From: Acidobacteriota bacterium
GTDB taxonomy: Bacteria > Acidobacteriota > Thermoanaerobaculia > Gp7-AA8
Direction of reading: 5' to 3'
DNA: 64,000 bases
Assembly (NCBI GenBank): GCA_019244185.1
Contig: JAFATB010000025.1
Span: forward strand, 352,798-416,797
Position numbers and translations under genes: made by a program
In this document: one piece after another, positions 17,725-37,163 of the stretch
Layout: each line of letters opens with the position of its first letter
Numbering within the stretch: the first letter of the stretch is position 1
Notes under the pieces: generated by a model
What the model was told of the DNA's origin: nothing
What the model saw: only the letters and a program-made list of their open reading frames with translations
Databases searched by the model: none

Positions 17725-17749
17725 CGTGCTTCGGATTCTTCTTACGGCG

Positions 17750-18032: not shown

Positions 18033-18049
18033 AGCAATCGGCAGGCCAG
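18033..18049 (-). promoter_or_regulatory. Sigma-54 (-24/-12) promoter candidate
   Basis: Minus strand CTGGCCTGCCGATTGCT matches TGGC-N7-TTGC spacing, about 45 nt upstream of the 79-aa gene. Confidence 0.6.
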
Positions 18050-18064
18050 TATTTGAGAAAAACC

Positions 18065-18158
18065 GAATGAAGAACGCAGAACGCAGAATGAAGAATTGAG
18101 AACGGACGACTGGTGCTTTTTTCTACGTTCTTCATTCTGCGTTCTGCATTCTTCATTC
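18065..18158. repeat. Heptamer-repeat palindrome (GAATGAA/GAACGCA units, inverted arms)
   Basis: GAATGAAGAACGCAGAACGCAGAATGAAGAA ... TTCTTCATTCTGCGTTCTGCATTCTTCATTC. Confidence 0.85.
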
Positions 18159-18183
18159 AAGCGGCGCACAGCGCCGCGTCGAA

Positions 18184-19842: not shown

Positions 19843-19902
19843 GCCCCGCCTCGTTTGCGATTCCGATGCCTCAGCGCGCTTTTTGCACGCAGCGCAAAGA
19901 CG

Positions 19903-20733: not shown

Positions 20734-20744
20734 AGCGCCTGACA

Positions 20745-21203: not shown

Positions 21204-21213
21204 CGTTGAAGCC

Positions 21214-22203: not shown

Positions 22204-22255
22204 GCAGGCATGAGGTGTCAAATCGCGTGCCGCGTCTCGGGTTATCCTGCGTCGC

Positions 22256-23782
22256 ATGCAATCGTCGTCGTCGCGGTACGCGTTGCGCATCGCCGTGTTC
22301 GTCGCCGGCGCGCTCCTCATGGCGCTCGAGGTCGCGGCGTTCCGCATCATCGGCAAAACGTTCGGCGCCGCGCTGCGCGAGACGACCACCGTGATCGCCG
22401 TCTTTCTCGCGGCGATGAGCGCGGGCTACTGGGCGGGCGGACGGGCGGGCGACCGCTGGCCGCGGCCGGAGACGCTCGTCGCAACGCTGGTGCTCTCCGC
22501 GCTGTCGCTCTTCACCGTGCCGTGGCTGGACGCCGCGCTCTCGCCGCGCATCGCCGCGTCGTCGCTCGCGCTCGCGACACACGCGTTCATCGCCACGAGC
22601 GTGCTCTTCGCGATCCCGACGTTCCTCCTCGCCGCCACCTCGCCGATCGCCATCCGACTCTTCACGACCAGCACCGGCGCGAGCGGCTCGACGGCCGGCT
22701 CGATCTCCGCGCTCTCGACCGCGGGCAGCATCGCCGGAAGTCTCGCCACGGCGTTCTTCCTCATCGATTGGCTGGCCAGCATCAGCCGCACGGTGCTCCT
22801 CGTCGGCGCCGCCGCGCTCGCGACCGCGCTCCTCGTGCAGCTCGCATCGGCCGAACGCGCCGGCACGCGGCGGCTCGCGCTCGCACTTTCCGCGGCCGCG
22901 GCGGTCATCGTCGCGACGAGCGTCTTCGTCGCGCGTTCATCCGCGCTCGAGCAGTCGCTGCTCCGTCCGCTGCCGAACACGCGCGTGCTCTTCGTCGGCG
23001 ACAGCGGCTATCACCGCGTCACGGTCCGCGACCGCGCGCGCCAGCGCGAGATGCTCTTCAACCTCGGCGTTCAGACACGCATGCCGCTCAACGACCCGTT
23101 CGGTCCCGGCAACGCGTACTCCGACGCGCTGCATCTCGCGCGGCTGATGCGTCCGCAGACGAAGCGCGTGCTCGTCATCGGCCTCGGCGGCGGCACCGCG
23201 GCGAAGCAATACATGCATCACTACCCCGACACGATCGTCGACGCCGTCGACGTCGACCCGCTCGTCGTCGACGTCGCGCAACGCTTCTTCACCGTCGCGC
23301 CGGGACCGCGGCTGCGGCTGCACGTCGCCGACGGCCGCACGTTCCTGCGGCGCACGAACGAGCGCTGGGACCTCATCATCCTCGACGCGGCCACGACCAA
23401 CCGCTACGGCGATACGTTTCCGCCGCACCTCGCCACGCGCGAATTTTTTACCGAGGTCTCGACGCACCTCACGCCGGGCGGCATTCTGCATCTCCACAAC
23501 GGCTTCCATGCGTCGAAGCTGATGCCCGCCCTGCACAAGACCGTGGGCAGCGTGTACGGGAGCGTGCTGATGACCGGCGGCGAGCTCCTCGCCAGCGACG
23601 GCGCGCTCGTCATCGACCGTCCCGCGCTCGTGGCCCGCGCGCGCGAGAACGGCCTGCTGGCACAGCTCCCGAATCTCGGCACTGCCATCGAGCAGCTGAC
23701 GGATTCGAAGCCGGCGTACGGCGACGTGCCGCTCCTCACCGATGACTACGCGCCGGTCGACACGCTCCTCCGCAGCCGCTGA
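22256..23782 (+). CDS. Fused membrane domain / spermidine synthase-like SAM methyltransferase
   Basis: About 7 TM N-terminus; VLVIGLGGG, VDVDP, DGRTFL, DLIILDA; C-terminal LTDDYAPVD. Confidence 0.88.
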   Translation: MQSSSSRYALRIAVFVAGALLMALEVAAFRIIGKTFGAALRETTTVIAVFLAAMSAGYWAGGRAGDRWPRPETLVATLVLSALSLFTVPWLDAALSPRIAASSLALATHAFIATSVLFAIPTFLLAATSPIAIRLFTTSTGASGSTAGSISALSTAGSIAGSLATAFFLIDWLASISRTVLLVGAAALATALLVQLASAERAGTRRLALALSAAAAVIVATSVFVARSSALEQSLLRPLPNTRVLFVGDSGYHRVTVRDRARQREMLFNLGVQTRMPLNDPFGPGNAYSDALHLARLMRPQTKRVLVIGLGGGTAAKQYMHHYPDTIVDAVDVDPLVVDVAQRFFTVAPGPRLRLHVADGRTFLRRTNERWDLIILDAATTNRYGDTFPPHLATREFFTEVSTHLTPGGILHLHNGFHASKLMPALHKTVGSVYGSVLMTGGELLASDGALVIDRPALVARARENGLLAQLPNLGTAIEQLTDSKPAYGDVPLLTDDYAPVDTLLRSR

Positions 23783-24326
23783 GCCGCCCGGCGGTCTCCG
23801 CTACGTCGCGGACTTCCTCACGCCGGACGAGGAGCGAGCGCTGGTGGAGGAGATCGATGGATATCCATTTCATGAGGTGCGCATGCGCGGCCAGGTCGCG
23901 CGGCGGACGGTGATCCACTTCGGCTGGGACTACGACTACGACGGCTGGAGCATCCATCCCACGACGCCGCCGTCGCCGCGATTGCGCGCGCTGGCCGATC
24001 GTTGCGCGGCCGCGGCGGAGATCGCGCCGGAAGCGCTGCAGCAGTTCCTCGTCGCGCGCTATCCGCCGGGAGCGACGATCGGCTGGCACCGCGACGCGCC
24101 GATGTTCGGCAGTCCGGTGCTCGGCGTCTCGCTGCTCGCGCCATGCACGATGCGCTTCCGCAGAAAAAGCGGTGAGTCGTACGAAGTGTGGGCGCAGCCG
24201 CTGGCGCCGCGCGCGCTCTACATTCTGGGCGGCGCGGCGCGCATGCAGTGGCAGCACTCCATCCCGCCGGTGAAGGCGCTGCGTTACTCCATCACCATGC
24301 GCAGCTTGCGCGACGCGCAAAAGTGA
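23742..24326 (+). CDS. AlkB-like 2OG-Fe(II) dioxygenase
   Basis: YPPGATIGWHRD (HxD), WQHSIPP, RYSITMR. Confidence 0.88.
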   Translation: MTTRRSTRSSAAAEPPGGLRYVADFLTPDEERALVEEIDGYPFHEVRMRGQVARRTVIHFGWDYDYDGWSIHPTTPPSPRLRALADRCAAAAEIAPEALQQFLVARYPPGATIGWHRDAPMFGSPVLGVSLLAPCTMRFRRKSGESYEVWAQPLAPRALYILGGAARMQWQHSIPPVKALRYSITMRSLRDAQK

Positions 24327-24372
24327 AGCCTCAGGCTGGTCTGAATTTCGCAAGCCGCCAGACGCGAAACTG

Positions 24373-26208
24373 ATGCGGACGTGGGTGGCCTGCAGCCTCG
24401 TTCTCATGACAGCCTTCGCCGGCTGTAACCGCGCGAACTCTACCCGCCCGAAGCAACTTCCATACATCCAGCGTTACACCAGTTCGCCCGCGACGAGCCT
24501 CGCCTCCGTGCTCGCGGACGACGGCCAGTGGGTGATGGCGCCGAAGGACTACGCGAACACGCGCTTCTCCTCGCTCGATCAGATCAACACGAAGAACGTC
24601 GGCAACCTGCAGGCCGCGTGGACGTTCTCGACCGGCATCCTGCGCGGCCACGAGGCGGCGCCGCTCATCGTGAACAACACGATGTACATCGTCGGACCGT
24701 TTCCGAACCCCGTCTTCGCGCTCGACCTCACGCGTCCCGGCGGTCCGCTCAAGTGGCAGTACAAGCCGGCCGTGATCTCCGGCGCGAAAGGCGTCGCGTG
24801 CTGCGATTGGGTCAACCGAGGGGCGGCGTTCGGCGACGGCAAGATCGTCTTCAACACGCTCGACAACCAGACCATCGCGCTCGACGCGAACACCGGCGCC
24901 GAAGTTTGGAAGACGACCCTCGGCGACATCAATCAGGGCGAGACCATCACCATGGCCCCGCTCATCGTCAAAGACAAAGTGCTCGTCGGCAATGCGGGCG
25001 GCGAGTTCGGCGTGCGCGGCTGGCTGCAGGCGCTCGACCTGAAAACCGGAAAGCCCGTCTGGAAGGCATTCCATACAGGTCCCGATACGGATTGCCTGAT
25101 CGGCCCCGACTTCAAGCCCTTCTACCCGCTCGACGCCGGCAAAGACCTCGGCGTGAAAACGTGGTCGCCCGAATCGTGGCGGCAGGGCGGCGGCACGATG
25201 TGGGGCTGGATCTCTTACGACCCGCAGCTGAACCTCATCTACTACGGCACCGGCAATCCCGGCCCGTGGAACCCCGAGCTGCGTCCCGGCGACAACAAGT
25301 GGACCGCGACGCTCTTCGCGCGCGACGTCGACACCGGCGCCGCGAAGTGGGCGTATCAGTTCCAGCCGCACGACAACTTCGACTACGACGCCGTCAACGA
25401 GTCGACGCTGCTCGACCTGCACCTGCCCGGCGGCCAGCTGCGCAAAGTGCTCGTGCGCGCGGAGCGCAACGGCTACATGTACATGATCGACCGCGCGAAC
25501 GGCCAGGTGCTCTCCGCCGATCCGTACGCGTTCATCACGTCGACGAAAGGCATCGATCTCAAGACGGGGCGTCCGATCGAGAATCCCGACAAACAGCCGA
25601 AGAGCGGCAAAGTGATTCGCGAGATCTGCCCCGCCGTGCCCGGCGCGAAAGACTGGCAGCCGTCCGCGTACTCGCCGCGCACCGGGCTGCTGTACGTGCC
25701 CTCCGAAAACCTCTGCATGGACTTCGAGGGGCTCGAGGCGAACTACATCGCCGGCACGCCTTATCTGGGCGCGAATATCCGTTACTACGCGGGTCCCGGC
25801 GGCAACCGCGGCGAGCTGCTCGCGTGGGACGTCGTGCATCGGAAAAAAGTGTGGGGCGTGAAGGAACGCTTCCCGACGTACAGCGGCGCCGTCGCCACCG
25901 CGGGCGATCTCGTTTTCTACGGCACCATGGACGGCTGGTTCAAAGCGCTCGACGCCCGCAGCGGCGACACGCTCTGGAAGTTCAAGACCGACAGCGGAAT
26001 CATCAGCCAGCCGGTGACGTGGCGCGGGCCCGACGGCAAGCAGTACGTCGCGGTACTCACCGGCGTCGGCGGCTGGCCGGGCGCCATCGTCTCCGGCGAT
26101 CTCGATCCGCGCGACGCCGGCGCCGGCGACGGCTTCGTCAGCGCCATGAGCGACCTGCCCAAATTCACGGAGAAAGGGAGCACGTTGTATGTCTTCGCGC
26201 TTCCTTAG
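24373..26208 (+). CDS. xoxF: PQQ-dependent methanol/ethanol dehydrogenase, lanthanide-type (XoxF-like) paralog 1, lipoprotein signal
   Basis: Vicinal CC (VACCDWVNRG), GGEFGVRG, GTGNPGPWN, FDYDAVNE (D-Y-D at 25381-25389), FAGC lipobox. Confidence 0.88.
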   Translation: MRTWVACSLVLMTAFAGCNRANSTRPKQLPYIQRYTSSPATSLASVLADDGQWVMAPKDYANTRFSSLDQINTKNVGNLQAAWTFSTGILRGHEAAPLIVNNTMYIVGPFPNPVFALDLTRPGGPLKWQYKPAVISGAKGVACCDWVNRGAAFGDGKIVFNTLDNQTIALDANTGAEVWKTTLGDINQGETITMAPLIVKDKVLVGNAGGEFGVRGWLQALDLKTGKPVWKAFHTGPDTDCLIGPDFKPFYPLDAGKDLGVKTWSPESWRQGGGTMWGWISYDPQLNLIYYGTGNPGPWNPELRPGDNKWTATLFARDVDTGAAKWAYQFQPHDNFDYDAVNESTLLDLHLPGGQLRKVLVRAERNGYMYMIDRANGQVLSADPYAFITSTKGIDLKTGRPIENPDKQPKSGKVIREICPAVPGAKDWQPSAYSPRTGLLYVPSENLCMDFEGLEANYIAGTPYLGANIRYYAGPGGNRGELLAWDVVHRKKVWGVKERFPTYSGAVATAGDLVFYGTMDGWFKALDARSGDTLWKFKTDSGIISQPVTWRGPDGKQYVAVLTGVGGWPGAIVSGDLDPRDAGAGDGFVSAMSDLPKFTEKGSTLYVFALP

Positions 26209-27988
26209 CTCCCTCGGCGTCGCGGCAGTCCTTTGCGCGTGCGCCTGCGCGCGATCGAATCCGCCGGTGAAAACGGATCTGCACCAGCTCTCGCGCGACG
26301 ACGCGCAGTGGGTGATGCCAGCCAAGGATTACGCGTCGACGCGCTACAGCGGCCTCGCGCAGATCAACACCTCGAACGCGAAACAGCTCAAGCTCGCGTG
26401 GACCGTGTCGACGGGACACGACCGCGGACACGAGGCCGGTCCGCTCGTCATCGGCGACACGATGTACTACGTGACGCCGTTCCCCAACGATCTCATCGCC
26501 ATCGATCTGAAGAATCCGACCGGTCCGCCGAAATGGAAGTACCGGCCGCAGAACCTCGAGACCGAATCGCAGGGCGTCGCCTGCTGCGACGTCGTCAACC
26601 GCGGCGCCGCGTACGCGAACGGCAAGGTGTTCCTCAACACGCTCGACGGTCGCACGTGCGCCGTCGATGCGGAGACCGGCAAGGAAGTGTGGGTGAGGCA
26701 GCTCGCCGACATCAACCGCGGCGAGACCATCACCATGGCGCCGCTGGTCGTGAAGAACAAAGTGCTCGTCGGCGACAGCGGCGGCGAGTTCGGTGTGCGC
26801 GGCTGGGTCACGGCGCTCGATTCCGAAACGGGAAAAATCGCGTGGCGCGCCTACGCCACCGGTCCCGATAAGGACGTGCTCATCGGCCCGAACTTCAAGC
26901 CGTTCTACGCCACCGACCGCGGCAAGGATCTGGGCGTCAGCACGTGGCCGAAGGACAAGTGGAAGATCGGCGGCGGCACGATGTGGGGCTGGATCTCCTA
27001 CGACCCCGAGCTCGATCTCATCTACTACGGCACCGGCAACCCGGGACCGTGGAATCCCGAGCTGCGCCCCGGCGACAACAAGTGGACCTCCGGGATCTTC
27101 GCGCGCCGCCCCGACACCGGCGAGGCGGTCTGGTACTACCAGTGGTCGCCGCACGACGAGTTCGATTACGACGGCATCAACGAACAACTCCTGCTCGATC
27201 TCCCGATCGGCGGCAAGACGCGCAAAGTCCTCGTGCGCCCGGAGCGCAACGGCTACATGTACGTGCTCGACCGCGCAACCGGCGAAGTGCTCTCCGCCGA
27301 TGCGTACGGCGCGGTCACCTCGAGCTTCGGCGTCGATCTGAAATCCGGCCGCCTCATCCCGAACAAGGCGAAGGAGCCGGGCACGGGGAAAGTGATCCCC
27401 GACATCTGCCCTGCCGCGCCCGGCGCGAAGGACTGGCAGCCATCGGCGTACTCGCCGCGGACGCGCCTCATCTACGTCCCGCACCAGAACCTCTGCATGC
27501 AGCACGAGGGCACGGACGTGAACTACATCGCCGGCACGCCGTACGTCGGCGCGAACGTCGTCATGGTTCCCGGCCCCGGCGGCCATCGCGGCGAGTTCGA
27601 CGCGTGGGATCCGGTGCAGCGCAAGAAAGTCTGGTCGATCCGCGAGAACTTTCCCGTGTGGTCCGGCGCGCTCGTCACCGCGGGTGACGTCGCCTTCTAC
27701 GGCACGATGGACGGCTGGTTCAAAGCCGTCGACGCCCGCACCGGCACGCTGCTCTGGCAGTTCAAAACCTCCAGCGGAATCATCGGCCAGCCCGTCACCT
27801 ACCGCGGCCCCGACGGCAAGCAGTACGTGACCATCGCCGCGGGAGTCGGCGGCTGGGCCGGCGCGATCGTCGCCGGAGGACTGGACCCGAGGGACGCGAC
27901 GGCGGCGCTGGGGTTTGTAAATGCGATGAAGGATTTGCCGGGAGCCACCAACAAGGGTGGGGTGATTTACACGTTTGCGTTGCCCTGA
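26189..27988 (+). CDS. xoxF: PQQ-dependent methanol/ethanol dehydrogenase, lanthanide-type (XoxF-like) paralog 2
   Basis: VACCDVVNRG, GGEFGVRG, GTGNPGPWN, FDYDGINE (D-Y-D at 27164-27172). Cys-containing signal peptide; 20-bp overlap with paralog 1. Confidence 0.88.
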   Translation: MSSRFLSSLGVAAVLCACACARSNPPVKTDLHQLSRDDAQWVMPAKDYASTRYSGLAQINTSNAKQLKLAWTVSTGHDRGHEAGPLVIGDTMYYVTPFPNDLIAIDLKNPTGPPKWKYRPQNLETESQGVACCDVVNRGAAYANGKVFLNTLDGRTCAVDAETGKEVWVRQLADINRGETITMAPLVVKNKVLVGDSGGEFGVRGWVTALDSETGKIAWRAYATGPDKDVLIGPNFKPFYATDRGKDLGVSTWPKDKWKIGGGTMWGWISYDPELDLIYYGTGNPGPWNPELRPGDNKWTSGIFARRPDTGEAVWYYQWSPHDEFDYDGINEQLLLDLPIGGKTRKVLVRPERNGYMYVLDRATGEVLSADAYGAVTSSFGVDLKSGRLIPNKAKEPGTGKVIPDICPAAPGAKDWQPSAYSPRTRLIYVPHQNLCMQHEGTDVNYIAGTPYVGANVVMVPGPGGHRGEFDAWDPVQRKKVWSIRENFPVWSGALVTAGDVAFYGTMDGWFKAVDARTGTLLWQFKTSSGIIGQPVTYRGPDGKQYVTIAAGVGGWAGAIVAGGLDPRDATAALGFVNAMKDLPGATNKGGVIYTFALP

Positions 27989-27999
27989 AGAGTCAAAGC

Positions 28000-28098
28000 G
28001 AATGAAGAACGCAGAACGCAGAACGCAGAACGTAGAAAGAGGACCGGATGCGCGGAGCGTTTCTACATTCTTCATTCTGCGTTCTGCGTTCTTCATTC
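28000..28098. repeat. Heptamer-repeat palindrome, second copy, overlapping the xoxJ 5' end
   Basis: GAATGAAGAACGCAGAACGCAGAACGCAGAACGTAGAAA ... TTTCTACATTCTTCATTCTGCGTTCTGCGTTCTTCATTC. Confidence 0.85.
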
Positions 28099-28886
28099 TG
28101 CTTTTCACGTGTTGCACGGCACAGTCGCCCCATCCAACGCAGCCCGCTCCCACCTTGCGCGTCTGCTCCGACCCCAACAACCTTCCCTTCTCCAACCGCG
28201 CCGGCCAGGGCTTCGAAAACAAGATCGCGAACCTCATCGCGAACGACCTTCACGAGAAAGTCGAGTACACCTGGTGGGCGCAGCGGCGCGGGTTCCTGCG
28301 CAATACGCTGAAGGCGAAGCAGTGCGACGTCGTGATGGGGTTGCCGACCGGCGTCGACATGGCGGCCGTCACGCGGCCGTATTACCGCTCGACCTACGTC
28401 TTCGTCTCGCGCCGCGACCGGCACCTCGGCATCACGTCGTTCGACGATCCGAAGCTGAAGGCGCTCAAGATTGGGGTCCAGATCATCGGCGATGACGGAG
28501 CGAACGCGCCGCCCGCGCATGCGCTCGCCGCGCGCGGCATCGTCGACAACGTGCGCGGCTACACCGTCTACGGCGACTACCGCCAGCCGAATCCGCCCGC
28601 GCGGATCATCGACGCGGTCGCGCGCGGCGAAGTCGATCTCGCCGTCGTATGGGGTCCGCTGGCGGGCTACTTCGCCAAACGCGAGCCGGTGCCGCTCGAG
28701 CTCGTCCCCGTCTCGCCGGAGATCGATCTCCCGTTCCTGCCGTTCGTCTTCGACATCGGCCTCGCCACGCGCTACGACGACGCCGCGCTGCGCCAGAAGC
28801 TCGAGCTGATCCTCGAGCGGCGCAAGCCGGAGATCGACCGCATCCTCGCCGACTACGGCGTCCCGCGACTCGATACGGAGCTCTGA
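28002..28886 (+). CDS. xoxJ: XoxJ/MxaJ-like periplasmic substrate-binding protein
   Basis: LRVCSDPNNLPFSN...GFENKIA, PYYRSTYVFV, VWGPLAGYFA; lies directly after xoxF. Confidence 0.88.
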   Translation: MKNAERRTQNVERGPDARSVSTFFILRSAFFILLFTCCTAQSPHPTQPAPTLRVCSDPNNLPFSNRAGQGFENKIANLIANDLHEKVEYTWWAQRRGFLRNTLKAKQCDVVMGLPTGVDMAAVTRPYYRSTYVFVSRRDRHLGITSFDDPKLKALKIGVQIIGDDGANAPPAHALAARGIVDNVRGYTVYGDYRQPNPPARIIDAVARGEVDLAVVWGPLAGYFAKREPVPLELVPVSPEIDLPFLPFVFDIGLATRYDDAALRQKLELILERRKPEIDRILADYGVPRLDTEL

Positions 28887-28891
28887 ACACC

Positions 28892-29422
28892 ATGAGAAAC
28901 GCGCTCCTCCTCGCCTCGTGCCTCCTCGCCGCAGCAGCCTGCCGCCGCGAGCAGCGCGAGATCGTCCACTCCCCCGCCGCCTCGCATGCGTCCGGCGGCA
29001 TCGTGCGTCTCTCGGAACTGCAGCCCGGCCAGCCGACGCCCGAAGTCGAAGTGCGGAACGCGTCGGAAGAGAAGGCCTACGACATCAACGAAGGGAAGCG
29101 CCTCTTCGCCGCGTACAACTGCAGCGGATGTCACTCCCACGGCGGCGGCGGCATCGGTCCCGCGCTGATGGACAACTACTGGGTTTACGGCAGCCATCCG
29201 GAAAACATCCACGACACCATTGTCGAAGGGCGTCCCAACGGCATGCCGTCGTTCGGCGGAAAAATCCCCGACTACCAGATCTGGGAGATCGTCGCGTACG
29301 TGCGCTCGCTCTCCGGCCTCGTGAACCCCACCGTCGCCCCGTCGCGCGACGATCACATGCAGGTCAAGGTCGCCGAGCAGTCGAAGAAAGAAGAATCGAC
29401 GGAAGAGAAAAAGAAACCGTGA
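28892..29422 (+). CDS. xoxG: XoxG/cytochrome cL-like monoheme cytochrome c, lipoprotein
   Basis: GKRLFAAYNCSGCH..GGGGIGPALMD..WVYG; GRPNGMP; AAAC lipobox. Confidence 0.8.
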   Translation: MRNALLLASCLLAAAACRREQREIVHSPAASHASGGIVRLSELQPGQPTPEVEVRNASEEKAYDINEGKRLFAAYNCSGCHSHGGGGIGPALMDNYWVYGSHPENIHDTIVEGRPNGMPSFGGKIPDYQIWEIVAYVRSLSGLVNPTVAPSRDDHMQVKVAEQSKKEESTEEKKKP

Positions 29423-30381
29423 GGCTCCTCTTCGCCACGTTCCAGTCGCCGCTGCATCCCGCCGGGCCGTACGCCCGTGCGATCGAGAGGCTGTGGTGGG
29501 TCTTCTTCGCGATCACGGCCGTGATCTACGTGCTCATGCTGATCGGCTTCGCGCTCGCCGTGCGCAAAGGCGCGCGCCGCAAGCAGGCCGATCTCAGCGA
29601 CGAGGCCACGCGCAGCGGCGCGCGCTTCATCACCATCGCCCTCAGCGCGACGACGGTCATCCTCATCGGCCTGCTCTTCACCAGCATCGCCACGGGGCGT
29701 GACATCTCACCGGTCGACGACAAGGTCACGCGCGAGATCAAGATCACCGGGCATCAGTGGTGGTGGGAAGTGCAGTACGCCGAGGCGCGGCCGGACATGA
29801 TCGTCGAGACCGCGAACGAGCTGCATCTCCCGGTCGGCGAGCGCGTGAAGCTCATCCTCGACTCGGACGACGTCATCCACAGCCTCTGGATTCCGAACCT
29901 CCACGGCAAACGCGATCTCATCCCCGGCTACGACGGCGTGCTCACGCTCACCGCCGACAAGACCGGCACGTACCGCGCGCAATGCGCGGAGTTCTGCGGC
30001 CTGCAGCACGCGAAGATGGCCTTTCTCGTCATCGTCGAGCCGAAAGCGGACTTCGAGCGCTGGCTGACCGCGCAGCGGCTCCCCGCCCCGTTCCCGAAGA
30101 CCGCCGATCAGCAGCACGGCCAGCAGGTCTTCCTCACCTCGACCTGCGTGATGTGCCACGCCATCAAAGGCACGTCCGCGGGTGCGCGCACGGGACCCGA
30201 TCTCACGCACCTCGCCAGCCGCCGCACGCTCGGCGCCGGCATTCTGCCCAACACGCTCGGCAATCTGCACGGCTGGATCGCGAACGCGCAAACGATCAAG
30301 CCGGGCGTGCTGATGCCGCCGAATCCGCTCGAACCGAACGACCTGCACGCGCTGGTGGCGTATCTGGAGACGCTGCAATGA
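29419..30381 (+). CDS. coxB: Cytochrome c oxidase subunit II with C-terminal cytochrome c (caa3 type)
   Basis: GHQWWW, DVIHSLW, CuA motif CAEFCGLQHAKM, CVMCH. GTGA overlap with xoxG stop. Confidence 0.93.
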   Translation: MRLLFATFQSPLHPAGPYARAIERLWWVFFAITAVIYVLMLIGFALAVRKGARRKQADLSDEATRSGARFITIALSATTVILIGLLFTSIATGRDISPVDDKVTREIKITGHQWWWEVQYAEARPDMIVETANELHLPVGERVKLILDSDDVIHSLWIPNLHGKRDLIPGYDGVLTLTADKTGTYRAQCAEFCGLQHAKMAFLVIVEPKADFERWLTAQRLPAPFPKTADQQHGQQVFLTSTCVMCHAIKGTSAGARTGPDLTHLASRRTLGAGILPNTLGNLHGWIANAQTIKPGVLMPPNPLEPNDLHALVAYLETLQ

Positions 30382-32261
30382 ACGACCAGGAGCTCCATCT
30401 CCGACTCTCCGCGACGTGGCACAAGCCGACGGGGTTGTGGGGCTGGCTCACCGACAACCACCACACCACCATCGGCAAGCGCTTCATCATCACCGCCTTC
30501 GTCTTCTTCATCCTCGGCGGGATCGAAGCGCTGATCATGCGCACGCAGCTCGCGCTGCCCGAGAACCACGTCGTCAGCAACGATCTGTACAACCAGCTCT
30601 TCACCACGCACGGTTCGACGATGATGTTTCTCTTCGCCGTCCCCGTGATGGAAGGCCTCGGCCTCTACTTCGTGCCGCTGATGATCGGCACGCGGCAGAT
30701 GGCGTTCCCGCGTCTCAACCAGTTCGCGTACTTCAGCTATCTCATCGGCGGCGTGCTGCTCTACGTGGGACTCTTCGGCAACTTCGGTCCCGACGCCGGC
30801 TGGTTCGCGTACACGCCGCTCTCCGGCCCCGAGTTCTCACCCGGGAAACGCGTCGACGTCTGGGCGCAGATGATCACCTTCACGGAGATGGCAGCCCTCG
30901 GCGGCGCGGTGAGCATCATCGCCACCGTGTTCAAGCACCGCGCGCCCGGCATGTCGCTGAATCGCATGCCGCTCTTCGTGTGGGGGCAGCTCGTCACCTC
31001 GTTCATGATCATCTTCGCGATGCCGTCGGTGATGGTCGCCAGCGGCATGCTCGCCACCGACCGGCTCATCGCCACGCACTTCTTCAACAAGGCGGAAGGC
31101 GGCGACAACCTGCTGTGGCAGCACCTGTTCTGGTTCTTCGGGCATCCCGAGGTGTACATCATCTTCATTCCGGGCACGACGATGATGTCGACGCTCGTCT
31201 CCGCGTTCACGAAGCGCCCCAACTTCGGCTACCTCGGCATGGTGCTCTCGCTGATCGCGACCGGCTTCATCGGCTTCGGCGTGTGGGTGCATCACATGTT
31301 CGCGACGGGATTGCCGCAGCTCGGCCTCAGCTTCTTCACCGCGTCGAGCGTGCTGATCACGATTCCGACCGCGTTCCAGTTCTTCTCGTGGCTGACGACG
31401 TTGTGGCACGGCAAGATCCACTTCCACTCGCCGATCCTCTATTCGTTCAGCTTCATCGTCATCTTCCTCATCGGCGGACTCACCGGCGTCATGCTCGCGT
31501 CGGTGCCGCTCGACTGGCAGCTGCACGACACCTTCTTCGTCGTCGCGCACTTCCACTACGTCCTGATCGGCGGCGCGATCTTCCCGCTGCTCGGCGCGCT
31601 GACGTACTGGTTCCCGAAGCTCACCGGGCGTCTGATGAACGAGAAGCTGAGCGTCGTCACCGTCTCGCTGCTGTTCGTCGGCTTCAACGTCACGTTCTTC
31701 CCGATGCACCAGCTCGGCCTCATGGGCATGCCGCGCCGCGTATACACGTATCTCCCGAACCTCGGCTGGACGAACCTCAATCTGCTCGCGACGGTGGGCG
31801 CATACATCTTCGGCCTCGGCAGCCTGCTGTTCGTGCTCAACGCGCTGATCTCCGCGCGCATCGGCGTCATCGCCGGTGACGACCCGTGGGGCGGCGCGGA
31901 CCTCGAGTGGGCCACGGCGTCGCCGCCGCCCGCGTACAACTTCCTCTACGTCCCGACCGTTCGAGACCGGTATCCGCTCTGGAGCATGGAGCCCGATCAG
32001 CCGCTCGTCACCGGACTGGCGACGGACCGGCGCGAGATCCTCGTCACGAAGCTGATGGACGCCGAGCCCGATCATCTCTACGAGACGCCCGACCCGTCGA
32101 TCTCGCCGACGCTCGTCGCGTTGGGCGCGGGTATCGGCATCATTGCGGCGATCTTCAACCCTTGGGGCGTGCCGATCGGCTTCGTCCTCGCGGGACTCGG
32201 CCTGCTCGGCTGGTTTTGGCCAAAGCCGCCGCACAAGGAACTGCTGGAGCCGCAGCCGTGA
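30378..32261 (+). CDS. coxA: Cytochrome c oxidase subunit I (A-family like, atypical proton channels)
   Basis: FTTHG, WFFGHPEVY, VWVHHM, LHDTFFVVAHFHYV, GMPRR. ATGA overlap with coxB. Confidence 0.95.
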   Translation: MNDQELHLRLSATWHKPTGLWGWLTDNHHTTIGKRFIITAFVFFILGGIEALIMRTQLALPENHVVSNDLYNQLFTTHGSTMMFLFAVPVMEGLGLYFVPLMIGTRQMAFPRLNQFAYFSYLIGGVLLYVGLFGNFGPDAGWFAYTPLSGPEFSPGKRVDVWAQMITFTEMAALGGAVSIIATVFKHRAPGMSLNRMPLFVWGQLVTSFMIIFAMPSVMVASGMLATDRLIATHFFNKAEGGDNLLWQHLFWFFGHPEVYIIFIPGTTMMSTLVSAFTKRPNFGYLGMVLSLIATGFIGFGVWVHHMFATGLPQLGLSFFTASSVLITIPTAFQFFSWLTTLWHGKIHFHSPILYSFSFIVIFLIGGLTGVMLASVPLDWQLHDTFFVVAHFHYVLIGGAIFPLLGALTYWFPKLTGRLMNEKLSVVTVSLLFVGFNVTFFPMHQLGLMGMPRRVYTYLPNLGWTNLNLLATVGAYIFGLGSLLFVLNALISARIGVIAGDDPWGGADLEWATASPPPAYNFLYVPTVRDRYPLWSMEPDQPLVTGLATDRREILVTKLMDAEPDHLYETPDPSISPTLVALGAGIGIIAAIFNPWGVPIGFVLAGLGLLGWFWPKPPHKELLEPQP

Positions 32262-32920
32262 CGCTGACACCGCCGGCCGCTGATACGACTCCCGCGCCGA
32301 TCGGACGGCGTCTCGTCGACGTGTCGTCGCTGCCGAAGTTCGCGTTCGGCCATCGCGACCCGCTGTGGTGGGGCGTCTGGCTGCTGATCTGTATCGAAGG
32401 AACGATGTTCGTGATGCTCGCGGCGTCGTACGTTTATCTGCGCGGCAACTCCTCGCAGTGGCCACCCGCGGGCGCCGCGAACGCGCCGCTCGCCGTCACC
32501 GCGTCGACCGTCGCGCTGCTGCTCATCAGCATCATCCCCACCGCGATTGCGTTCCGCGCCGCGCTCGATGGACGGCTGCGCGTGATCCAGCTCAACATGG
32601 TGCTCGTCACATTGATCAGCATCGCCGCGGCCGGGACGCGGTGGCTCGAGCTGACGAGCATCGGCTACAACTGGAACAGCCACGCCTACGGCTCCGTCGT
32701 CTGGGGCTTCTACTTCATGCACACGTTCCATCTCGTCTCGGGGGTGTTCGAGAACCTCGTCTTCACGGCGCTGCTCTTCATCGGCCCGGTCGAGAAGAAG
32801 CACATGGTGGACATGCGGCTGTCGGCGATCTACTGGCTGTTCGTCGTCGTGGCGTGGACGCTGCTGTGGGGACTCTTCACCTTCGATTCGCTGCTGTTCC
32901 GCAACTCGATCATCAGCTGA
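32258..32920 (+). CDS. coxC: Cytochrome c oxidase subunit III-like protein
   Basis: WGVWLLICIEGTMF, AYGSVVW..MHTFH, IYWLFVVVAW; about 5 TM; GTGA overlap. Confidence 0.82.
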   Translation: MTLTPPAADTTPAPIGRRLVDVSSLPKFAFGHRDPLWWGVWLLICIEGTMFVMLAASYVYLRGNSSQWPPAGAANAPLAVTASTVALLLISIIPTAIAFRAALDGRLRVIQLNMVLVTLISIAAAGTRWLELTSIGYNWNSHAYGSVVWGFYFMHTFHLVSGVFENLVFTALLFIGPVEKKHMVDMRLSAIYWLFVVVAWTLLWGLFTFDSLLFRNSIIS

Positions 32921-32921
32921 C

Positions 32922-33326
32922 ATGAGCATCCGCGAAGACACGAAGACCGACATCGTCCCCGACCGCGGGAGCGTCCGCCTCTGGACCGTGACGCTCATCC
33001 CGCCGCTGCTGTGGGGACTGCATCTGCAGATCTGCTACTCGCTGCATGAAAGCGTCTGCGAGGCGCAGTCGCCGCTGAAGGGCTACCTCGTCTCCGCGCT
33101 CGCGCTGGTCATCATCGTCATCGACGCGGTCGTCGCCTGGCGGCTCTGGCAGTCGTGGCCGCCGCCGGATGCGGGCGGCGCGGCCGGCTGGTCGGAAGAG
33201 AAAGAGCCGCGCTGGCGCAGCCGCGCGCGCTTCATGGCCGCGGGCGCGTTCGTCGCCGCCTGCTACTTCGGTCTCGTGATCCTGGGACAGACCGTCCCGC
33301 TCGTGATGCTGCGGCCATGCGACTGA
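32922..33326 (+). CDS. Small 3-TM membrane protein in the cox operon
   Basis: Three hydrophobic helices; starts immediately after coxC stop and overlaps ctaG. Confidence 0.7.
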   Translation: MSIREDTKTDIVPDRGSVRLWTVTLIPPLLWGLHLQICYSLHESVCEAQSPLKGYLVSALALVIIVIDAVVAWRLWQSWPPPDAGGAAGWSEEKEPRWRSRARFMAAGAFVAACYFGLVILGQTVPLVMLRPCD

Positions 33327-34465
33327 TCTGGAACCTCCTCGTCGTCCTCTGCATGACCGCGTCGCTCGGTCTCTACTTCCGCGGACTCGCGCGGCTGCGC
33401 GCACGAAGCGACCGAGGCATTCGCTGGTGGGAAGCGAGCGCGTTCGCGCTGGGGTGGTTCACCATCGGCATCGCGCTCCTCTCCCCCATCGCGCGCATCT
33501 CCGACGTCCTTTTCTCCGTGCACATGACGCAGCACGAGCTGCTGATGCTCGTCGCCGCGCCGCTCATCGTCGCGGGCCGGCCGATGATCGCGGGAGTGTG
33601 GGGGCTCGGCGAAGACGCGCGCGCGCGCTTCCTCGCCGTCTCGCGCGCGCCCGCGTTCCTCCGCGCGTGGCACGCCATGACCGGCCCGTTCACCGTGCTC
33701 ATCGTGCACGCGGTGGTGCTGTGGGCGTGGCACATCCCGCGCGCGTTCGAGTGGGCGCTGCACAACCCCTCCGTGCACGCGATGCAGCACCTCATGTTCT
33801 TCATCACGGCCGCGCTGTTCTGGTGGGCGCTCATTCACGGGCGCTACGGGCGCGTCGGCTACGGCGTCGCGGTCTTCTTCGTCTTTGCCACCGCGATGCA
33901 CACCAGCCTTCTCGGCGTGCTGCTCACGTTCGCGCGGCACGTCTGGTATCCGACCTACGCCGCGCACACGCCGCATGCGCTCGAAGACCAGCAGCTCGCG
34001 GGCCTCATCATGTGGATTCCCGCAGGCGTGATCTTCATGCTCATCGGTCTCGCGCTCTTCGCCGCGTGGCTCGGGGAGTCGGAGCGACGCGCGCGCATCG
34101 TGACGATGCTCGTCCTCGCCTTCGTGCTCGCGCGCTGCTCCGATTATCCGAGCGAGCGCGTCGCCTCGGCCGAACACCTCACCGGCGGCAATGTCGATCG
34201 CGGCAAACAGGAGATCCGGCAGTACGGCTGTGCGTCGTGCCACACCATTCCCGGCATTCCCGGTGCGGACGCCACCGTCGGTCCTCCGCTCGACAAGCTC
34301 TCCGCGCGCGGCTACCTCGGCGGACGTCTCGCGAACAATCCCGCGAACCTGCTGCTCTGGATCCGCGCGCCGCAGTCGGTCGATCCGAAGAGCGCGATGC
34401 CGAACGTCGGCGTCACCGACCGCGACGCGCGCGACATCGCCGCGTATCTGTACTCGCTGAAGTAA
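33317..34465 (+). CDS. ctaG: Caa3-type CtaG assembly factor fused to C-terminal cytochrome c
   Basis: FSVHMTQHELLMLVAAPL, WAWHIP, HAMQH, EDQQLAGLIMWIP, then YGCASCH...MP. Confidence 0.85.
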   Translation: MRLIWNLLVVLCMTASLGLYFRGLARLRARSDRGIRWWEASAFALGWFTIGIALLSPIARISDVLFSVHMTQHELLMLVAAPLIVAGRPMIAGVWGLGEDARARFLAVSRAPAFLRAWHAMTGPFTVLIVHAVVLWAWHIPRAFEWALHNPSVHAMQHLMFFITAALFWWALIHGRYGRVGYGVAVFFVFATAMHTSLLGVLLTFARHVWYPTYAAHTPHALEDQQLAGLIMWIPAGVIFMLIGLALFAAWLGESERRARIVTMLVLAFVLARCSDYPSERVASAEHLTGGNVDRGKQEIRQYGCASCHTIPGIPGADATVGPPLDKLSARGYLGGRLANNPANLLLWIRAPQSVDPKSAMPNVGVTDRDARDIAAYLYSLK

Positions 34466-34476
34466 AGTCGCCGCCG

Positions 34477-34881
34477 ATGAAACGCCTCGCCTGGGTTCTC
34501 TTCGTCGCGTCGCTCGCCTGCGCCAAATCCGAAACGCCGCAATCCGCCACCGCCCAACCGACGACCGCGCAGGCCGCGCCGCCGCCCGCGACGTCTGCCG
34601 CGAATCCCGCGCACGGCCAGCAGCTCATCGTGCAGTACGGCTGCACGGCCTGTCATGCGATCCCCGGCATCGAAGGCGCGCAGGGCTCGCTGGCGCCCGC
34701 GCTCGCGCACGTCGCCGCGCGTCCGACGATCAGCAACAACAAGGTGCAGAACACGCCCGAGAACCTGCAGCGCTTCATCCAGAACCCGCCGTCGATGAAT
34801 CCAGGGAGCGGCATGCCGCCGCTGGCGATTCCCGACGCCGACGCGCACGACATCGTCGCGTACCTCGAGACGCTGCGATGA
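34477..34881 (+). CDS. Monoheme cytochrome c lipoprotein
   Basis: SLAC lipobox, Ala/Pro/Thr linker, YGCTACH...GMP. Confidence 0.85.
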   Translation: MKRLAWVLFVASLACAKSETPQSATAQPTTAQAAPPPATSAANPAHGQQLIVQYGCTACHAIPGIEGAQGSLAPALAHVAARPTISNNKVQNTPENLQRFIQNPPSMNPGSGMPPLAIPDADAHDIVAYLETLR

Positions 34882-35849
34882 ACGCGCGCGCCGCCGCCGC
34901 GCTCGCGATGGCGCTCGTCGTTGCGCTGCCCGCGCTCGCGGAACGCATCTACGTCTCGAACGAGCGCGCCGGCACGATCCAGGCGATCGACACGGCGACC
35001 GACCGCATCGTCGCCACGGCGAAGATCGGCGATCGTCCGCGCGGCATCGTGCTGTCGCCCGACGGCAAACGGCTCTACGTCGCGCGCAGCTGGTGGAAAG
35101 GAAAGCACGCCGGCAGCGAGGCCATCGTCGCGATCGATGCAGCCACATTGAAGATCGTGCGGACCTATCCGGCGGGCACCGATCCCGAGGGAGTCGCGCT
35201 GTCGCCGGACGGCAAGCGGCTGTACATGTCGAATGAAGACGCGGCGACGGCGACGATCGTCGACACGTCGACAGCGAAAGAGCTCGAGACGCTGGTCGTC
35301 GGCACGGAACCGGAGGGAGTCGCGGCGAGTCCGGATGGCAAGTGGGTGTACGTGACGGCGGAGACGAGCAACGTCCTCACGGTCATCGACGCGAAGCAGA
35401 AGAAAGTCGTGGCGAACATCCTCGTCGATCCGCGGCCGCGCTACACCGTCTTCACGCGCGACGCGACGCGCGCGTGGGCGAGCGCGGAGATTGGCGGCAG
35501 CGTCTCGCTCATCGACGCGCAGCGCCATCGCGTGCTCGCGCGCGTGAAGCTCGGCAAGACCGACCGCCCCGTCGGGCTCGTGCTCTCGCCCGACGAGAAG
35601 CGGCTCTACATCGGCACCGGCCGCGGCAACAGCGTGCTCGTCCTCGACACGACCACGCGCCGCGTCATCGCCACGATCCCCGCGGGCCAGCGCGTTTGGG
35701 GACTGGCGCGCACGCGCGACGGCAAAAAGCTCTACGCGGCCGGCAGCCTCTCCAACACGATCACCGTCATCGACACCGTCACGCTGCGCCCGATCGCCAC
35801 GATCAAGACGGGCGACGGACCGTGGGGACTCGCCGCGCTGCATCGCTGA
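34878..35849 (+). CDS. YVTN-type beta-propeller (PQQ-catabolism-associated type)
   Basis: Repeated PxG(I/V)xxSPDGKxxYV blades; signal peptide; ATGA overlap. Confidence 0.85.
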   Translation: MNARAAAALAMALVVALPALAERIYVSNERAGTIQAIDTATDRIVATAKIGDRPRGIVLSPDGKRLYVARSWWKGKHAGSEAIVAIDAATLKIVRTYPAGTDPEGVALSPDGKRLYMSNEDAATATIVDTSTAKELETLVVGTEPEGVAASPDGKWVYVTAETSNVLTVIDAKQKKVVANILVDPRPRYTVFTRDATRAWASAEIGGSVSLIDAQRHRVLARVKLGKTDRPVGLVLSPDEKRLYIGTGRGNSVLVLDTTTRRVIATIPAGQRVWGLARTRDGKKLYAAGSLSNTITVIDTVTLRPIATIKTGDGPWGLAALHR

Positions 35850-35888: not shown

Positions 35889-37163
35889 GTGGCGTTCTAC
35901 ATTCGTAAAACGCTTGCGCTGGGGCCGATCCGATTCGGCGTCGCTCCCCGCAAGCCGCTCGAGTCGATCGATTCCGACGCCGCGCTCTCGACGGGCGCGA
36001 AGGGAGAATTCCTCCGCCGCCAGACGCGCGCGTTCTTCTTCGCCGACAACCGCAGCACGCCGGGCGCGACGCTCCCCGTCACGCGCGGCATTTCCGGAAC
36101 GCCGTTCTGGAAATCCGTGTTCGACGGCACGACGCGCGGCTGGATCTTTCTCGCCTCCACGATTCTCGGCGTGATCCTGCTTCTCCTCGGCGTCGCCGTC
36201 ATCGCGCGCAAGGGCCCGCAAGGCTGGGTCGAAGTGATCCTCGGCCTCGCCGCGATCGTCACGCCGCTGGTCATGACCGCGCAGACGCGCCGCAAGATCC
36301 GCGAGCAGGAAGAGCGCGACCGCGCCGCGCGCGAGGAAGAAGAACGCCGCAACCGCGAGATGCTCGCCGCCTACACGACCGCGCTCGACAACCTTCGCGC
36401 TTCTCCGAACGACGTCGCCCTCGGCGCCGCCGCGCGCGAGCGCGAGGCGCTAACGCTGCCGTACGAGATCTGGAGCGGCCTCGCGCGCCGCACCGTCGTC
36501 GCCATCGCTTTCGACGCGCTCCACCGCCTCGGCAGCGAAAAGGCATCCGAGGTGAACGACCTCGTCACGCGCGCCTCGCGTGCGGTGGGCCTCTCGCCTG
36601 CGGACGAGCTGGGCGTGAAGGTCGATCTCTATCGCACCGCCGCGTGGCATCTGCTCGCCGACGATCGCGCCGCGAGCGCGCAGGAAGCGTCGCTGCGCCA
36701 GCTGCGCGAAGGACTCGAGCTCGGCGAGAACGACGTGCCGCTCGAACTGAGCGCCGTCGACGAGTTCGCGCGCCTGCGCGGCTACTCGCGCGATCACGCG
36801 CCGAAGACCGACTGTCCCTTCCCGCTCGGCTTCCACGAGTACTGCCTGCACGTCGCGAAAGGCTCGATCCTCAAGCGCACCAAAGCGCGCGTCGACAAGA
36901 AGCGCATCGAGAAGCTCGTCCCCGACGAGCCGTGCACGCTCATCGTCACGAACCGCCGCCTGATCCTCGACGCGAAGAAGCGCACCGAGATCCTGCTGCC
37001 GAAGATCGACGACGTGGAGCTCGACGCGGATGAAAACGTGCTCGCCATCCGCGCCGCGAAAGGCATCAAGCCGCTCGATCTGCAGCTCGACGATCCGATC
37101 TACACCGGCACCGTGATCGACATCGCCACGAGTCTCAACGAGCGGCCGCGCGGCTTCGCCTGA
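35889..37163 (+). CDS. Hypothetical membrane protein with DUF4236-like N-terminus and PH-like C-terminus
   Basis: MAFYIRKTLALGPIRF start; two TM helices; coiled coil; LIVTNRRLIL. Confidence 0.6.
   Translation: MAFYIRKTLALGPIRFGVAPRKPLESIDSDAALSTGAKGEFLRRQTRAFFFADNRSTPGATLPVTRGISGTPFWKSVFDGTTRGWIFLASTILGVILLLLGVAVIARKGPQGWVEVILGLAAIVTPLVMTAQTRRKIREQEERDRAAREEEERRNREMLAAYTTALDNLRASPNDVALGAAAREREALTLPYEIWSGLARRTVVAIAFDALHRLGSEKASEVNDLVTRASRAVGLSPADELGVKVDLYRTAAWHLLADDRAASAQEASLRQLREGLELGENDVPLELSAVDEFARLRGYSRDHAPKTDCPFPLGFHEYCLHVAKGSILKRTKARVDKKRIEKLVPDEPCTLIVTNRRLILDAKKRTEILLPKIDDVELDADENVLAIRAAKGIKPLDLQLDDPIYTGTVIDIATSLNERPRGFA

Follow-up and report, generated by a model that had tools for sequence, protein, structure and literature searches.

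The roles of D132, of the D-channel asparagines, and of K362 underpin the textbook mechanism of the heme-copper oxidases and have been worked out mostly in mutants of three model enzymes. This article concerns an oxidase in which most of these residues are replaced. Its subunit I gene lies at 30378..32261 of a 64,000-nucleotide stretch of DNA (hereafter the window) from an Acidobacteriota bacterium of the lineage Thermoanaerobaculia; Gp7-AA8 (assembly GCA_019244185.1, contig JAFATB010000025.1, positions 352,798 to 416,797 of the forward strand). The original prediction, made from the letters of this sequence, described an oxidase with intact metal sites and both canonical proton channels altered. 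The gene was found to be part of a branch of the A family that is large and widespread and has apparently not been described before, a naturally selected clade in which the catalytic core and E286 are kept while the textbook residues are swapped for another conserved set. Channel positions are named by the residue numbers of the Rhodobacter sphaeroides enzyme.

In Paracoccus denitrificans numbering, the D-channel of A1-type enzymes comprises D124, N199, N113, N131, Y35, S134, and S193 together with E278, and the K-channel comprises K354, T351, S291, and Y280 (Sousa, 2011). D132, N139, and N207 of R. sphaeroides are equivalent to D124, N131, and N199 of P. denitrificans (Marechal, 2020; PMC7196763). 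The K-type path of B-family enzymes has Thr, Ser, and Tyr for the Lys, Thr, and Ser of the A family (Sousa, 2011). Natural A-family oxidases without the K354/K362 lysine and without the subunit II glutamate have also been described; they occur in iron oxidizers and their relatives, and carry I, L, V, F, M, A, or T (six rows) at the lysine position (Degli Esposti et al., 2020 preprint, 2021 paper). These K-less oxidases are said to keep the D-channel and, in the parts of the two articles available to us, none is tabulated with Gln and no glutamate in transmembrane helix (TM) 4 is mentioned. Gene clusters in which a XoxF3 dehydrogenase co-localizes with a cytochrome oxidase (XoxF3-Cox) have been reported from Acidobacteria and Gemmatimonadetes (Voutsinos, 2024, BMC Biol; PMC10875860).

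Subunit I and Its Catalytic Site

The oxidase is encoded by three consecutive genes:

29419..30381, forward strand: oxidase subunit II, with two TM helices, a CuA cupredoxin domain, and a C-terminal cytochrome c domain
30378..32261, forward strand: oxidase subunit I, 627 amino acids in a stop-free translation, with 14 TM helices (12 core and 2 C-terminal)
32258..32920, forward strand: short five-helix subunit III (CyoC/CtaE-like), 220 amino acids (PF00510, E 5e-05; weak CyoC and CtaE matches)

Subunit I matches COX1 (PF00115) at E 3.8e-143 in a Pfam profile search and passes the NCBIfam equivalog TIGR02891 (CtaD_CoxA) with 673.8 bits against a cut-off of 670.75. HMMER aligned 517 of its residues to solved mycobacterial CtaD (6adq_F and four others; E ~1e-138) at 44% identity. 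The histidine ligands of the low-spin heme, the high-spin heme, and CuB are all present (H78, H256, H305, H306, H391, and H393), as are the Mg-site pair H383-D384 and the arginine pair R453-R454, and the motif GHPEVY supplies E258 at the E286 position and Y260, the predicted cross-link tyrosine, at the Y288 position. Every element that the original prediction had listed as intact was thus located, and the metal ligands, E286, the Mg site, and the arginine pair are invariant in 46 of 46 relatives; among 121 homologues, the Y260 position is Tyr in 120 and the E258 position Glu in 120. E258 is also the helix-VI glutamate that marks the A1 subtype in the Pereira/Sousa scheme. By fold, ligands, and HPEVY motif, subunit I is an A-family heme-copper oxidase, sharing with the A1-type aa3/caa3 enzymes (R. 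sphaeroides, P. denitrificans, and CtaD 6adq_F) the fold, the six histidines, HPEVY, the Mg site, the arginine pair, and CuA. It does not belong to the B family, since E286 and HPEVY are kept and ba3 chains match only residues 205-461, at E ~1e-10.

An AlphaFold2 model of subunit I, built with 46 relatives, has 14 membrane helices, a mean predicted local distance difference test score (pLDDT) of 82.6, and a predicted template modeling score (pTM) of 0.87. Its top Foldseek match is the fused I+III chain of Thermus thermophilus caa3 (2yev_A; 608 columns, E 8.6e-37), followed by subunit I of Escherichia coli bo3 and of Bacillus aa3-600 (605-638 columns), and its template modeling scores to A1-type aa3/caa3 targets are 0.86-0.88. 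Because the model aligns over the caa3 I+III chain, its two C-terminal helices would be equivalent to helices 1 and 2 of subunit III, with the other five supplied by the separate gene at 32258-32920. The Thermus enzyme (2YEV) is the best match both for the fold of subunit I and for the sequence of subunit II, and shares the cytochrome c fused to subunit II and the attachment of subunit III helices to subunit I; it differs in that only two such helices are fused in the query and five lie in a separate gene. It is also an A2-type enzyme with a YS motif, unlike the HPEVY type of the query.

The original prediction had raised the possibility of a substrate such as NO. Altered proton channels are typical of nitric oxide reductases (NORs), and these have several origins within the heme-copper oxidase superfamily (Murali, 2024). 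NORs are recognized by the motifs H-x-Arom-x-E and HH-x-Arom-Arom-x17-E (Sousa, 2011) and have no tyrosine cofactor (Sousa, 2011; Murali, 2024). Subunit I, in contrast, contains neither H-x-Arom-x-E nor HH-x-Arom-Arom and keeps the cross-link tyrosine and the three CuB histidines; CuA is present in subunit II, the best sequence and fold matches are all O2 reductases, and no denitrification genes were seen among the open reading frames of the window that were scanned. The proposal of an NO substrate is disfavored by these observations, and an oxidase-derived reductase of nitric oxide or of another non-O2 substrate is highly improbable.

Substitutions in the Proton Channels

The two substitutions at the channel residues D132 and K362 are encoded as follows, the columns being those of the HMMER alignment to CtaD:

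30696..30698, forward strand: codon CAG of Q107, at the D132 position
31377..31379, forward strand: codon CAG of Q334, at the K362 position

The D132 position is Gln where CtaD reads igapDvafprln (query igtrQmafprln), the N121 position is L96 (CtaD gfaNl, query glgLy), the N207 position is Ser (CtaD ggvNmi, query gavSii), and the K362 position is Gln (CtaD ptgiKffnw, query ptafQffsw). The alignment to CtaD thus confirmed the D132Q, N121L, N207S, and K362Q replacements that had been read by eye, with both CAG codons in place. Further D-channel changes convert S142 to Ala, S200/S201 to Ala-Ala, and Y33 to Phe. At D124, N199, N113, N131, Y35, S134, and S193 of the D-channel set cited above the query has Q, S, L, N, F, A, and A, so that it keeps two of the eight residues (N131 and E278); of the four K-channel residues three are kept (T331, S271, and Y260), with Q334 in place of the lysine, and in neither channel is the A1 set complete.

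The same enzyme lacks the subunit II glutamate, E78, that belongs with the A1 K-channel set. Subunit II scores 163.3 bits against the CoxB equivalog TIGR02866 (cut-off 147.7), with additional COX2 and Cytochrom_C matches, and its closest solved relative is caa3 subunit II (2yev_B, E 2e-51), to which the Cys, His, and Met ligands of CuA and the CxxCH heme c motif align; the combination of CuA with a fused cytochrome c domain makes the enzyme caa3-type. There is no acidic residue in TM2 of subunit II, and the column of the canonical Glu, which 2YEV shares, holds Thr in the 2yev_B alignment and Thr, Arg, or Ile depending on the aligner. Its absence, suspected in the original prediction, held in both the 2yev_B and the MAFFT alignments. 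Leaving aside three rows without sequence in that region, none of the 38 clade loci with data (the window counted) has the glutamate, and all 25 canonical ones do. Relative to A1-type enzymes, the query is therefore without D132, N121, N207, S142, S200/S201, Y33, K362, and the subunit II Glu, and gains E92, E170, and T295.

These differences have to be set against the possibility that the enzyme is an ordinary, fully pumping A1 oxidase whose substitutions reflect alignment artifact or neutral drift. Identity with mycobacterial CtaD is 44% over the full length, the CtaD equivalog cut-off is passed, and N139, T359, S299, Y288, and E286 are retained. Artifact, however, is opposed by the agreement of the column assignments between HMMER and MAFFT, and in the translation of the query the TM2-3 loop is free of acids and TM6-TM9 offer no other Lys, Arg, or His; drift is opposed by the comparison with relatives.

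A Clade with Gln at the K362 Position

The best 120 matches to subunit I in a collection of 5.8 billion proteins are 62-95% identical to it, come where named from Thermoanaerobaculia, other Acidobacteriota, Blastocatellia, and two myxobacteria, and all have Gln at K362 and Glu in TM4 in place of the canonical Gly. Scanning one genome per species gave 80 loci, 41 of the Gln362 type and 39 canonical. The 41 extend to Gemmatimonadales, Rokuibacteriota, Chloroflexia, Opitutales, a planctomycete, Oligoflexus, and many Alpha-, Beta-, and Gammaproteobacteria (Mesorhizobium, Microvirga, Paraburkholderia, Caballeronia, Ramlibacter, Halomonas, Variovorax, Delftia, and Achromobacter). Sequences were pooled into a set of 203, made up of 121 proteins and 82 read from loci, some of the latter shortened by contig ends; the locus of the window itself (L002) was dropped. 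At the K362 position this set divides into 162 with Gln, 40 with Lys (canonical), and one with Ile (L003). The 162 Gln362 sequences form a single clade without intruders (FastTree support 0.973), placed among A-family sequences, and are distinguished by the following positions (query residue first):

Q334 (K362): Gln in 162 of 162 clade sequences; Lys in 40 of 40 canonical sequences
E170 (G198): Glu in 162 of 162; canonical Gly in 38 of 40
P403: Pro in 162 of 162; canonical Ala 25, Gly 6, Pro 4, Thr 3 (n = 40)
L96 (N121): Asn in none of 162; canonical Asn in 40 of 40
T295 (TM7): Thr in 145 of 162; canonical Ile in 39 of 40

All 40 canonical sequences in the same alignment retain N121, D132, N139, N207, Y33, and K362. 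As judged from these alignments, the residue pattern of the query is not a matter of chance, since it is conserved across 162 homologues while 40 of 40 canonical sequences keep the textbook residues, and the same contrast speaks against drift; an ordinary A1 oxidase is accordingly given very little credence. Identity within the clade ranges from 43 to 100% with the signature residues unvarying, which argues for purifying selection on a functioning design, and the clade-wide fixation of the substitutions indicates that a different design was selected and not that the enzyme decayed. A decaying, inactive paralogue could be imagined, given that this is one of three A-family oxidases in the genome and that such mutations cripple the model enzymes; yet the reading frame is intact, the operon appears translationally coupled, and the 162 homologues with invariant signature residues are spread over many phyla and onto plasmids, so that decay is scarcely credible.

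The XoxF-Cox cluster and the K-less A-family oxidases were already known; the Gln362/Glu198 clade is apparently new. A search of the open full-text literature turned up no account of an A-family clade combining Gln at K362 with a TM4 Glu, and leaves room for one in subscription journals (Sousa 2012 BBA; the Hemp and Gennis groups) or in Figures S9-S11 of the 2020 preprint. The 'CoxMNOP' oxidase of rhizobia and pseudomonads was considered and not equated with the clade: it has a diheme CoxM and a different subunit split, and no channel residues are given for it.

New Glutamates and the Order of Changes

Loss at the textbook positions is accompanied in the query by two acidic residues assigned by alignment, both absent from canonical oxidases and neither of them listed in the original prediction:

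30651..30653, forward strand: codon of E92, a TM2 glutamate four residues before the N121 position
30885..30887, forward strand: codon of E170, a TM4 glutamate at a canonical Gly (R. sphaeroides G198)

Of the 162 clade sequences, 96 have Glu at position 92, 22 have Gln, and 39 have Leu; none of the 40 canonical ones has Glu or Gln there. The residues conserved in canonical sequences form a stripe on TM4 (170, 173 [S201], 176/177, 179 [N207], and 183) and another on TM2 (89, 93, 96 [N121], and 100). E170, three residues before the S201 position, falls on the former, and E92 lies at the edge of the latter; by this periodicity E170 should lie directly beneath E286, at the upper end of the D-pathway. 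The original claim that both channels are altered therefore stands as regards the substituted residues, and overstated the loss, since E92 and E170 lie on helix faces that line the D-pathway. Likewise, formal alignment places no Asp or Lys at the D132 and K362 positions, as that claim required, while its proviso that neighboring residues might compensate is partly borne out by the same two glutamates.

The clade also records how these residues may have been exchanged. When each sequence is given a four-letter code for positions 92, 132, 198, and 207, the query reads EQES. Fused forms of ~830 amino acids, with subunit III attached, read EDEE in 17 of 24 cases, the earliest short-form branches read EDEE or LDEE, and the lineages basal to both halves of the clade have E92-D132-E198-E207. 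In the crown, which comprises 136 tips, D132 is lost; its 128 acid-free short forms have Asn (104), Ser (12), Gln (8), or Ala (4) at that position. In a later crown subgroup E207 gives way to Asn or Ser, and the query falls within the most derived group. The provisional order would thus be EDEE first, then loss of D132, then loss of E207. The acid at the N207 position of the basal members resembles the uncoupled N207D mutant of the model enzymes; the basal run of acids looks like a channel that has been re-lined and not one that has been abandoned.

Two other candidate features were dropped. A buried salt bridge between R35 in TM1 and E170 is contradicted by the fused basal group, where R35 occurs in 7 of 24 and E170 is invariant, and is also disfavored by model helix depths ~ten residues apart. 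A charge reversal at the channel mouth by the Arg before D132 (R106) fails because Arg is found there in 21 of 40 canonical sequences too. Separately, residues 553-566 (32035-32078, forward strand) form a cytoplasmic beta-hairpin segment linking TM12 and TM13, in which E553 is Glu in 151 of 162 clade sequences and, among 46 relatives, T557 and D561 are invariant and D565 and H566 at least 90% conserved. Its acids and histidine could be a proton-collecting surface near a channel mouth.

Proposed Function

The enzyme is probably a functional cytochrome c:O2 oxidoreductase of the caa3 type, its proton input rebuilt, that stands at the end of a self-contained periplasmic XoxF chain. Electrons would pass from XoxF to the XoxG cytochrome c, to the cytochrome c domain of subunit II, and to CuA, and from there through heme a to heme a3/CuB and O2. 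Protons would still be taken from the cytoplasm, by way of a glutamate-lined D-region, a Lys-free K-type path as in the B family, or both, and energy would be conserved at least by charge separation. In the clade, the lysine position of the K-pathway always holds Gln, usually with Thr for the conserved Ile on TM7, and the new glutamates would be buried on D-pathway-lining faces, E170 below E286 and E92 near the N121 position.

An active, cytoplasm-fed enzyme is argued for, in the first place, by the never-varying Gln and the new TM7 Thr, unlike the variable residues of the K-less oxidases. The two together resemble the Lys-free K-type path of B-family enzymes, and the Gln-Ser/Thr-Ser-Tyr set of the query is a possible functional analogue of the single path of ba3. 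It is argued for, in the second place, by the glutamates on D-pathway faces taken with the behavior of engineered mutants, in which an inward carboxylate restores pumping. D132N/N139D does so in R. sphaeroides, as do second-site mutants of bo3 D135N (Marechal, 2020; PMC7196763), so that a carboxylate moved inward can substitute for the entrance Asp. The query resembles a natural D132-amide enzyme with its carboxylate moved inward to E92 and E170; it differs from the engineered mutants in that its natural acids stand in TM2, four residues before N121, and at G198 in TM4, alongside the loss of N121 and K362. Finally, as the sole coupling site of the XoxF-XoxG chain, the oxidase would presumably be under pressure to conserve energy. 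Among the interpretations first offered for this gene, an alternative proton route is hence the one favored by the clade-fixed Gln and TM4 Glu.

Another of those interpretations was an electron sink that conserves no energy, drawing periplasmic protons as in cNOR or turning over uncoupled, and so burning XoxF electrons; it would permit fast alcohol oxidation regardless of membrane potential. The query is missing D132, N121, N207, K362, and the subunit II Glu together, pumping is lost in D132N mutants (Marechal, 2020), and ordinary respiration could be left to the two other A-family oxidases of the genome. In the crown, the outer half of TM4 carries a series of polar residues (K157, R158, D160, Q164, T167, and E170, with Q164 in 128 of 128 sequences and T167 in 126 of 128) that could reach the periplasm; the fused basal group, however, has no such run, with Leu and Gly at 164 and 167, and yet E170 and Q334 are invariant there. 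E286, the arginine pair, and the Mg site are strictly retained, an invariant Gln at K362 is hard to explain for an unused path, and uncoupling at a sole coupling site would, we infer, waste all the energy of alcohol oxidation. Such a sink is considered unlikely.

A rebuilt, cytoplasm-fed input has its own difficulties, and the following points weigh against it. In model enzymes, D132N alone abolishes pumping with the loss of most activity, and an acid at N139 or N207 uncouples (Marechal, 2020; PMC7196763). The placement of E92, E170, T295, and Q334 relative to the water paths rests on helix periodicity and on general oxidase topology. Within the clade, the N207 position is variable (N 83, E 53, S 13, and others among 162), only 32 of the 162 have an acid at the D132 position and the lower D-region of the crown looks relaxed, and the Leu at position 92 (39 of 162) includes many crown members; because E170 is the sole extra acid in some relatives, E92 is no general replacement for D132. 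A single FastTree tree, with one A2-type paralogue as its root, gives the polarity of the changes, and subunit I passes TIGR02891 by only 3 bits. No activity, expression, or proton-stoichiometry data for clade members were found in the literature, and a non-pumping enzyme is a real possibility.

Taking these points together, proton pumping is given somewhat less than an even chance. Charge separation without pumping is a credible second outcome, held more tentatively; supply from the periplasm is improbable; and inactivity or some other chemistry makes up the small remainder. It is also proposed, with a confidence a little short of even, that the Gln362/Glu198 clade is a third A-family design beside A1 and A2. 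Such a design would have no K-pathway Lys and no subunit II Glu and, in the crown, no D132 entrance Asp either. It would route protons along a ladder of buried carboxylates (E207, E92, E198, and E286) or along a single Lys-free B-like path, and it would spread horizontally as a plug-in terminal module for periplasmic lanthanide/pyrroloquinoline quinone (PQQ) dehydrogenases, including on rhizobial plasmids.

If this were so, the clade would amount to a test, set up by nature, of which channel residues proton delivery and pumping cannot do without. Its members include culturable, genetically tractable rhizobia such as Sinorhizobium medicae WSM419 (plasmid pSMED03), in which activity, H+/e- ratio, and structure are directly measurable. 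It also matters for how much energy soil Acidobacteriota, Gemmatimonadota, and Rokubacteria gain from the lanthanide-dependent oxidation of methanol and alcohols: with the oxidase as sole coupling site, the energy yield assumed for metabolism based on XoxF depends on whether there is pumping, charge separation only, or neither.

The Gene Cluster Around the Oxidase

The oxidase lies within an operon-like row of 12 genes, with a run on one strand (24373-35849) whose junctions overlap or nearly abut. Besides the three oxidase genes, the row contains:

24373..26208, forward strand: XoxF-type PQQ methanol/ethanol dehydrogenase, copy 1, 611 amino acids (PF01011, E 7e-63)
26189..27988, forward strand: XoxF-type PQQ dehydrogenase, copy 2, 599 amino acids (TIGR03075, 650.1 bits; 66% identical to copy 1)
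28002..28886, forward strand: XoxJ/MoxJ-like periplasmic binding protein (TIGR03871, 314.6 bits, cut-off 212), read from the ATG at 28002; alternative start at 27975
28892..29422, forward strand: XoxG-like class I cytochrome c with a signal-like N-terminus (PF13442, PF00034; weak MoxG match, TIGR03872)
32922..33326, forward strand: small conserved membrane protein, 134 amino acids, between CoxIII and CtaG
33317..34465, forward strand: caa3-type CtaG assembly factor fused to a cytochrome c domain (PF09678, E 3e-55; PF00034)
34477..34881, forward strand: small cytochrome c (PF00034 in its C-terminal part)
34878..35849, forward strand: PQQ-catabolism-associated beta-propeller, YncE-like (TIGR03866, 297.7 bits, cut-off 287.3)
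35889..37163, forward strand: protein with a membrane segment, of uncertain membership in the unit (sub-threshold matches only)

The first XoxF copy scores 659.6 bits against TIGR03075 (cut-off 480), and the second comes closest, among solved structures, to the lanthanide methanol dehydrogenase 4mae_A (E 1e-198), whose DYD motif lines up with its own. Both carry FDYD, at residue 337 in copy 1 and 326 in copy 2, and are lanthanide-type by sequence; the second Asp of D-Y-D, two residues after the catalytic Asp, is the lanthanide ligand of such enzymes. The TIGR03075, PF01011, and 4mae_A matches of these neighboring PQQ genes bear out the earlier suggestion that dehydrogenases are the electron source of the oxidase. 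Start and stop codons overlap at 29419-29422 (GTGA, XoxG/CoxII), 30378-30381 (ATGA, CoxII/CoxI), 32258-32261 (GTGA, CoxI/CoxIII), and 34878-34881 (ATGA, cytochrome c/propeller), an arrangement that suggests translational coupling of the module genes. There are four c-type heme domains in the cluster, belonging to XoxG, subunit II, CtaG, and the small cytochrome c.

With all components co-localized on one strand between 24373 and 35849, the row is a XoxF-Cox respiratory cluster and has the same gene set as that of Voutsinos (2024), namely XoxF, XoxG, XoxJ, CoxI/II/III, a hypothetical protein, CtaG, CytC, and a YncE-like protein. The proton-channel residues are not discussed in the sections of that article on the cluster (PMC10875860). 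The statement in the original prediction that channel-variant oxidases had been noted near PQQ genes is hence right as to the cluster, which is in print, and is not matched there as to the channels.

The small hypothetical protein of the cluster is also noted in Voutsinos (2024; PMC10875860). Pfam and NCBIfam scans gave no family match for the 134-residue membrane protein of the window, which has homologues in the same position at three related loci (L007, L085, and L086) and a 116-residue hypothetical counterpart on pSMED03; a role in assembly, or as an additional subunit of the oxidase, is possible. The protein at 35889..37163 is absent beside the oxidase from all the related loci that were compared.

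Distribution of the Cluster and Other Oxidases of the Genome

The same gene order occurs at loci L008, L011, L012, L028, and L084-L088. L084 is plasmid pSMED03 of S. medicae WSM419, where the whole module (xoxF, xoxJ, cyt c, coxB, ctaD, cox3, hypothetical, ctaG) lies in the same order at 17385-25398 of the record. This plasmid is typed as conjugative and has an IS66 element ~3 kb downstream of the module, and such a setting fits horizontal spread. A tblastn search found subunit I genes 57-59% identical to the query on many rhizobial plasmids, with hits in Mesorhizobium japonicum MAFF303099 and Bradyrhizobium barranii among them.

In the one-genome-per-species scan, XoxF (52-73% identity) adjoins 6 of the 41 clade loci, five others of which begin too near the oxidase for adjacency to be judged, versus none of the 39 canonical loci; XoxF-linked clade loci number 12 in all. 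Across 301 sampled Acidobacteriota genomes, five (including G000) hold a subunit I of at least 57% identity among the matches listed, the next best among those listed (first 150) being at 50%; three unpublished genomes (G024, G049, and G152) enter this sample as non-holders only. XoxF adjoins the oxidase in all five holders. At the 12 XoxF-linked loci the D132 position is Q (once), N (seven), A (three), or S (once) and is never acidic; as these loci are mutually related, the link between XoxF and the loss of D132 should be read as a pattern, without the weight of a statistical test.

The genome of the window has two further A-family oxidases. The first subunit I (L001) is a canonical A2-type protein (YSHPAVY) with both channels present. 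The other (L003, G000:C7:310296-314699; open reading frame 1336-3240, forward strand) keeps all D-channel residues and E286 and has Ile at K362, and so resembles the 'modified K-channel' kind of Degli Esposti et al.

Other Genes of the Window

At 5928-12341 the reverse strand encodes a predicted surface protein of 2137 amino acids with four GEVED domains, three SdrD_B domains, DUF11, and an IPTL-CTERM sorting signal. A formate/nitrite-family transporter with an N-terminal extension of ~200 residues (19324-20733, forward strand) is followed by a stand-alone response-regulator receiver (20706-21203, forward strand), and an FdhD/NarQ-family gene lies at 55748-56575 on the reverse strand. The transporter, the receiver, and the FdhD/NarQ gene may be related to the handling of C1 products.

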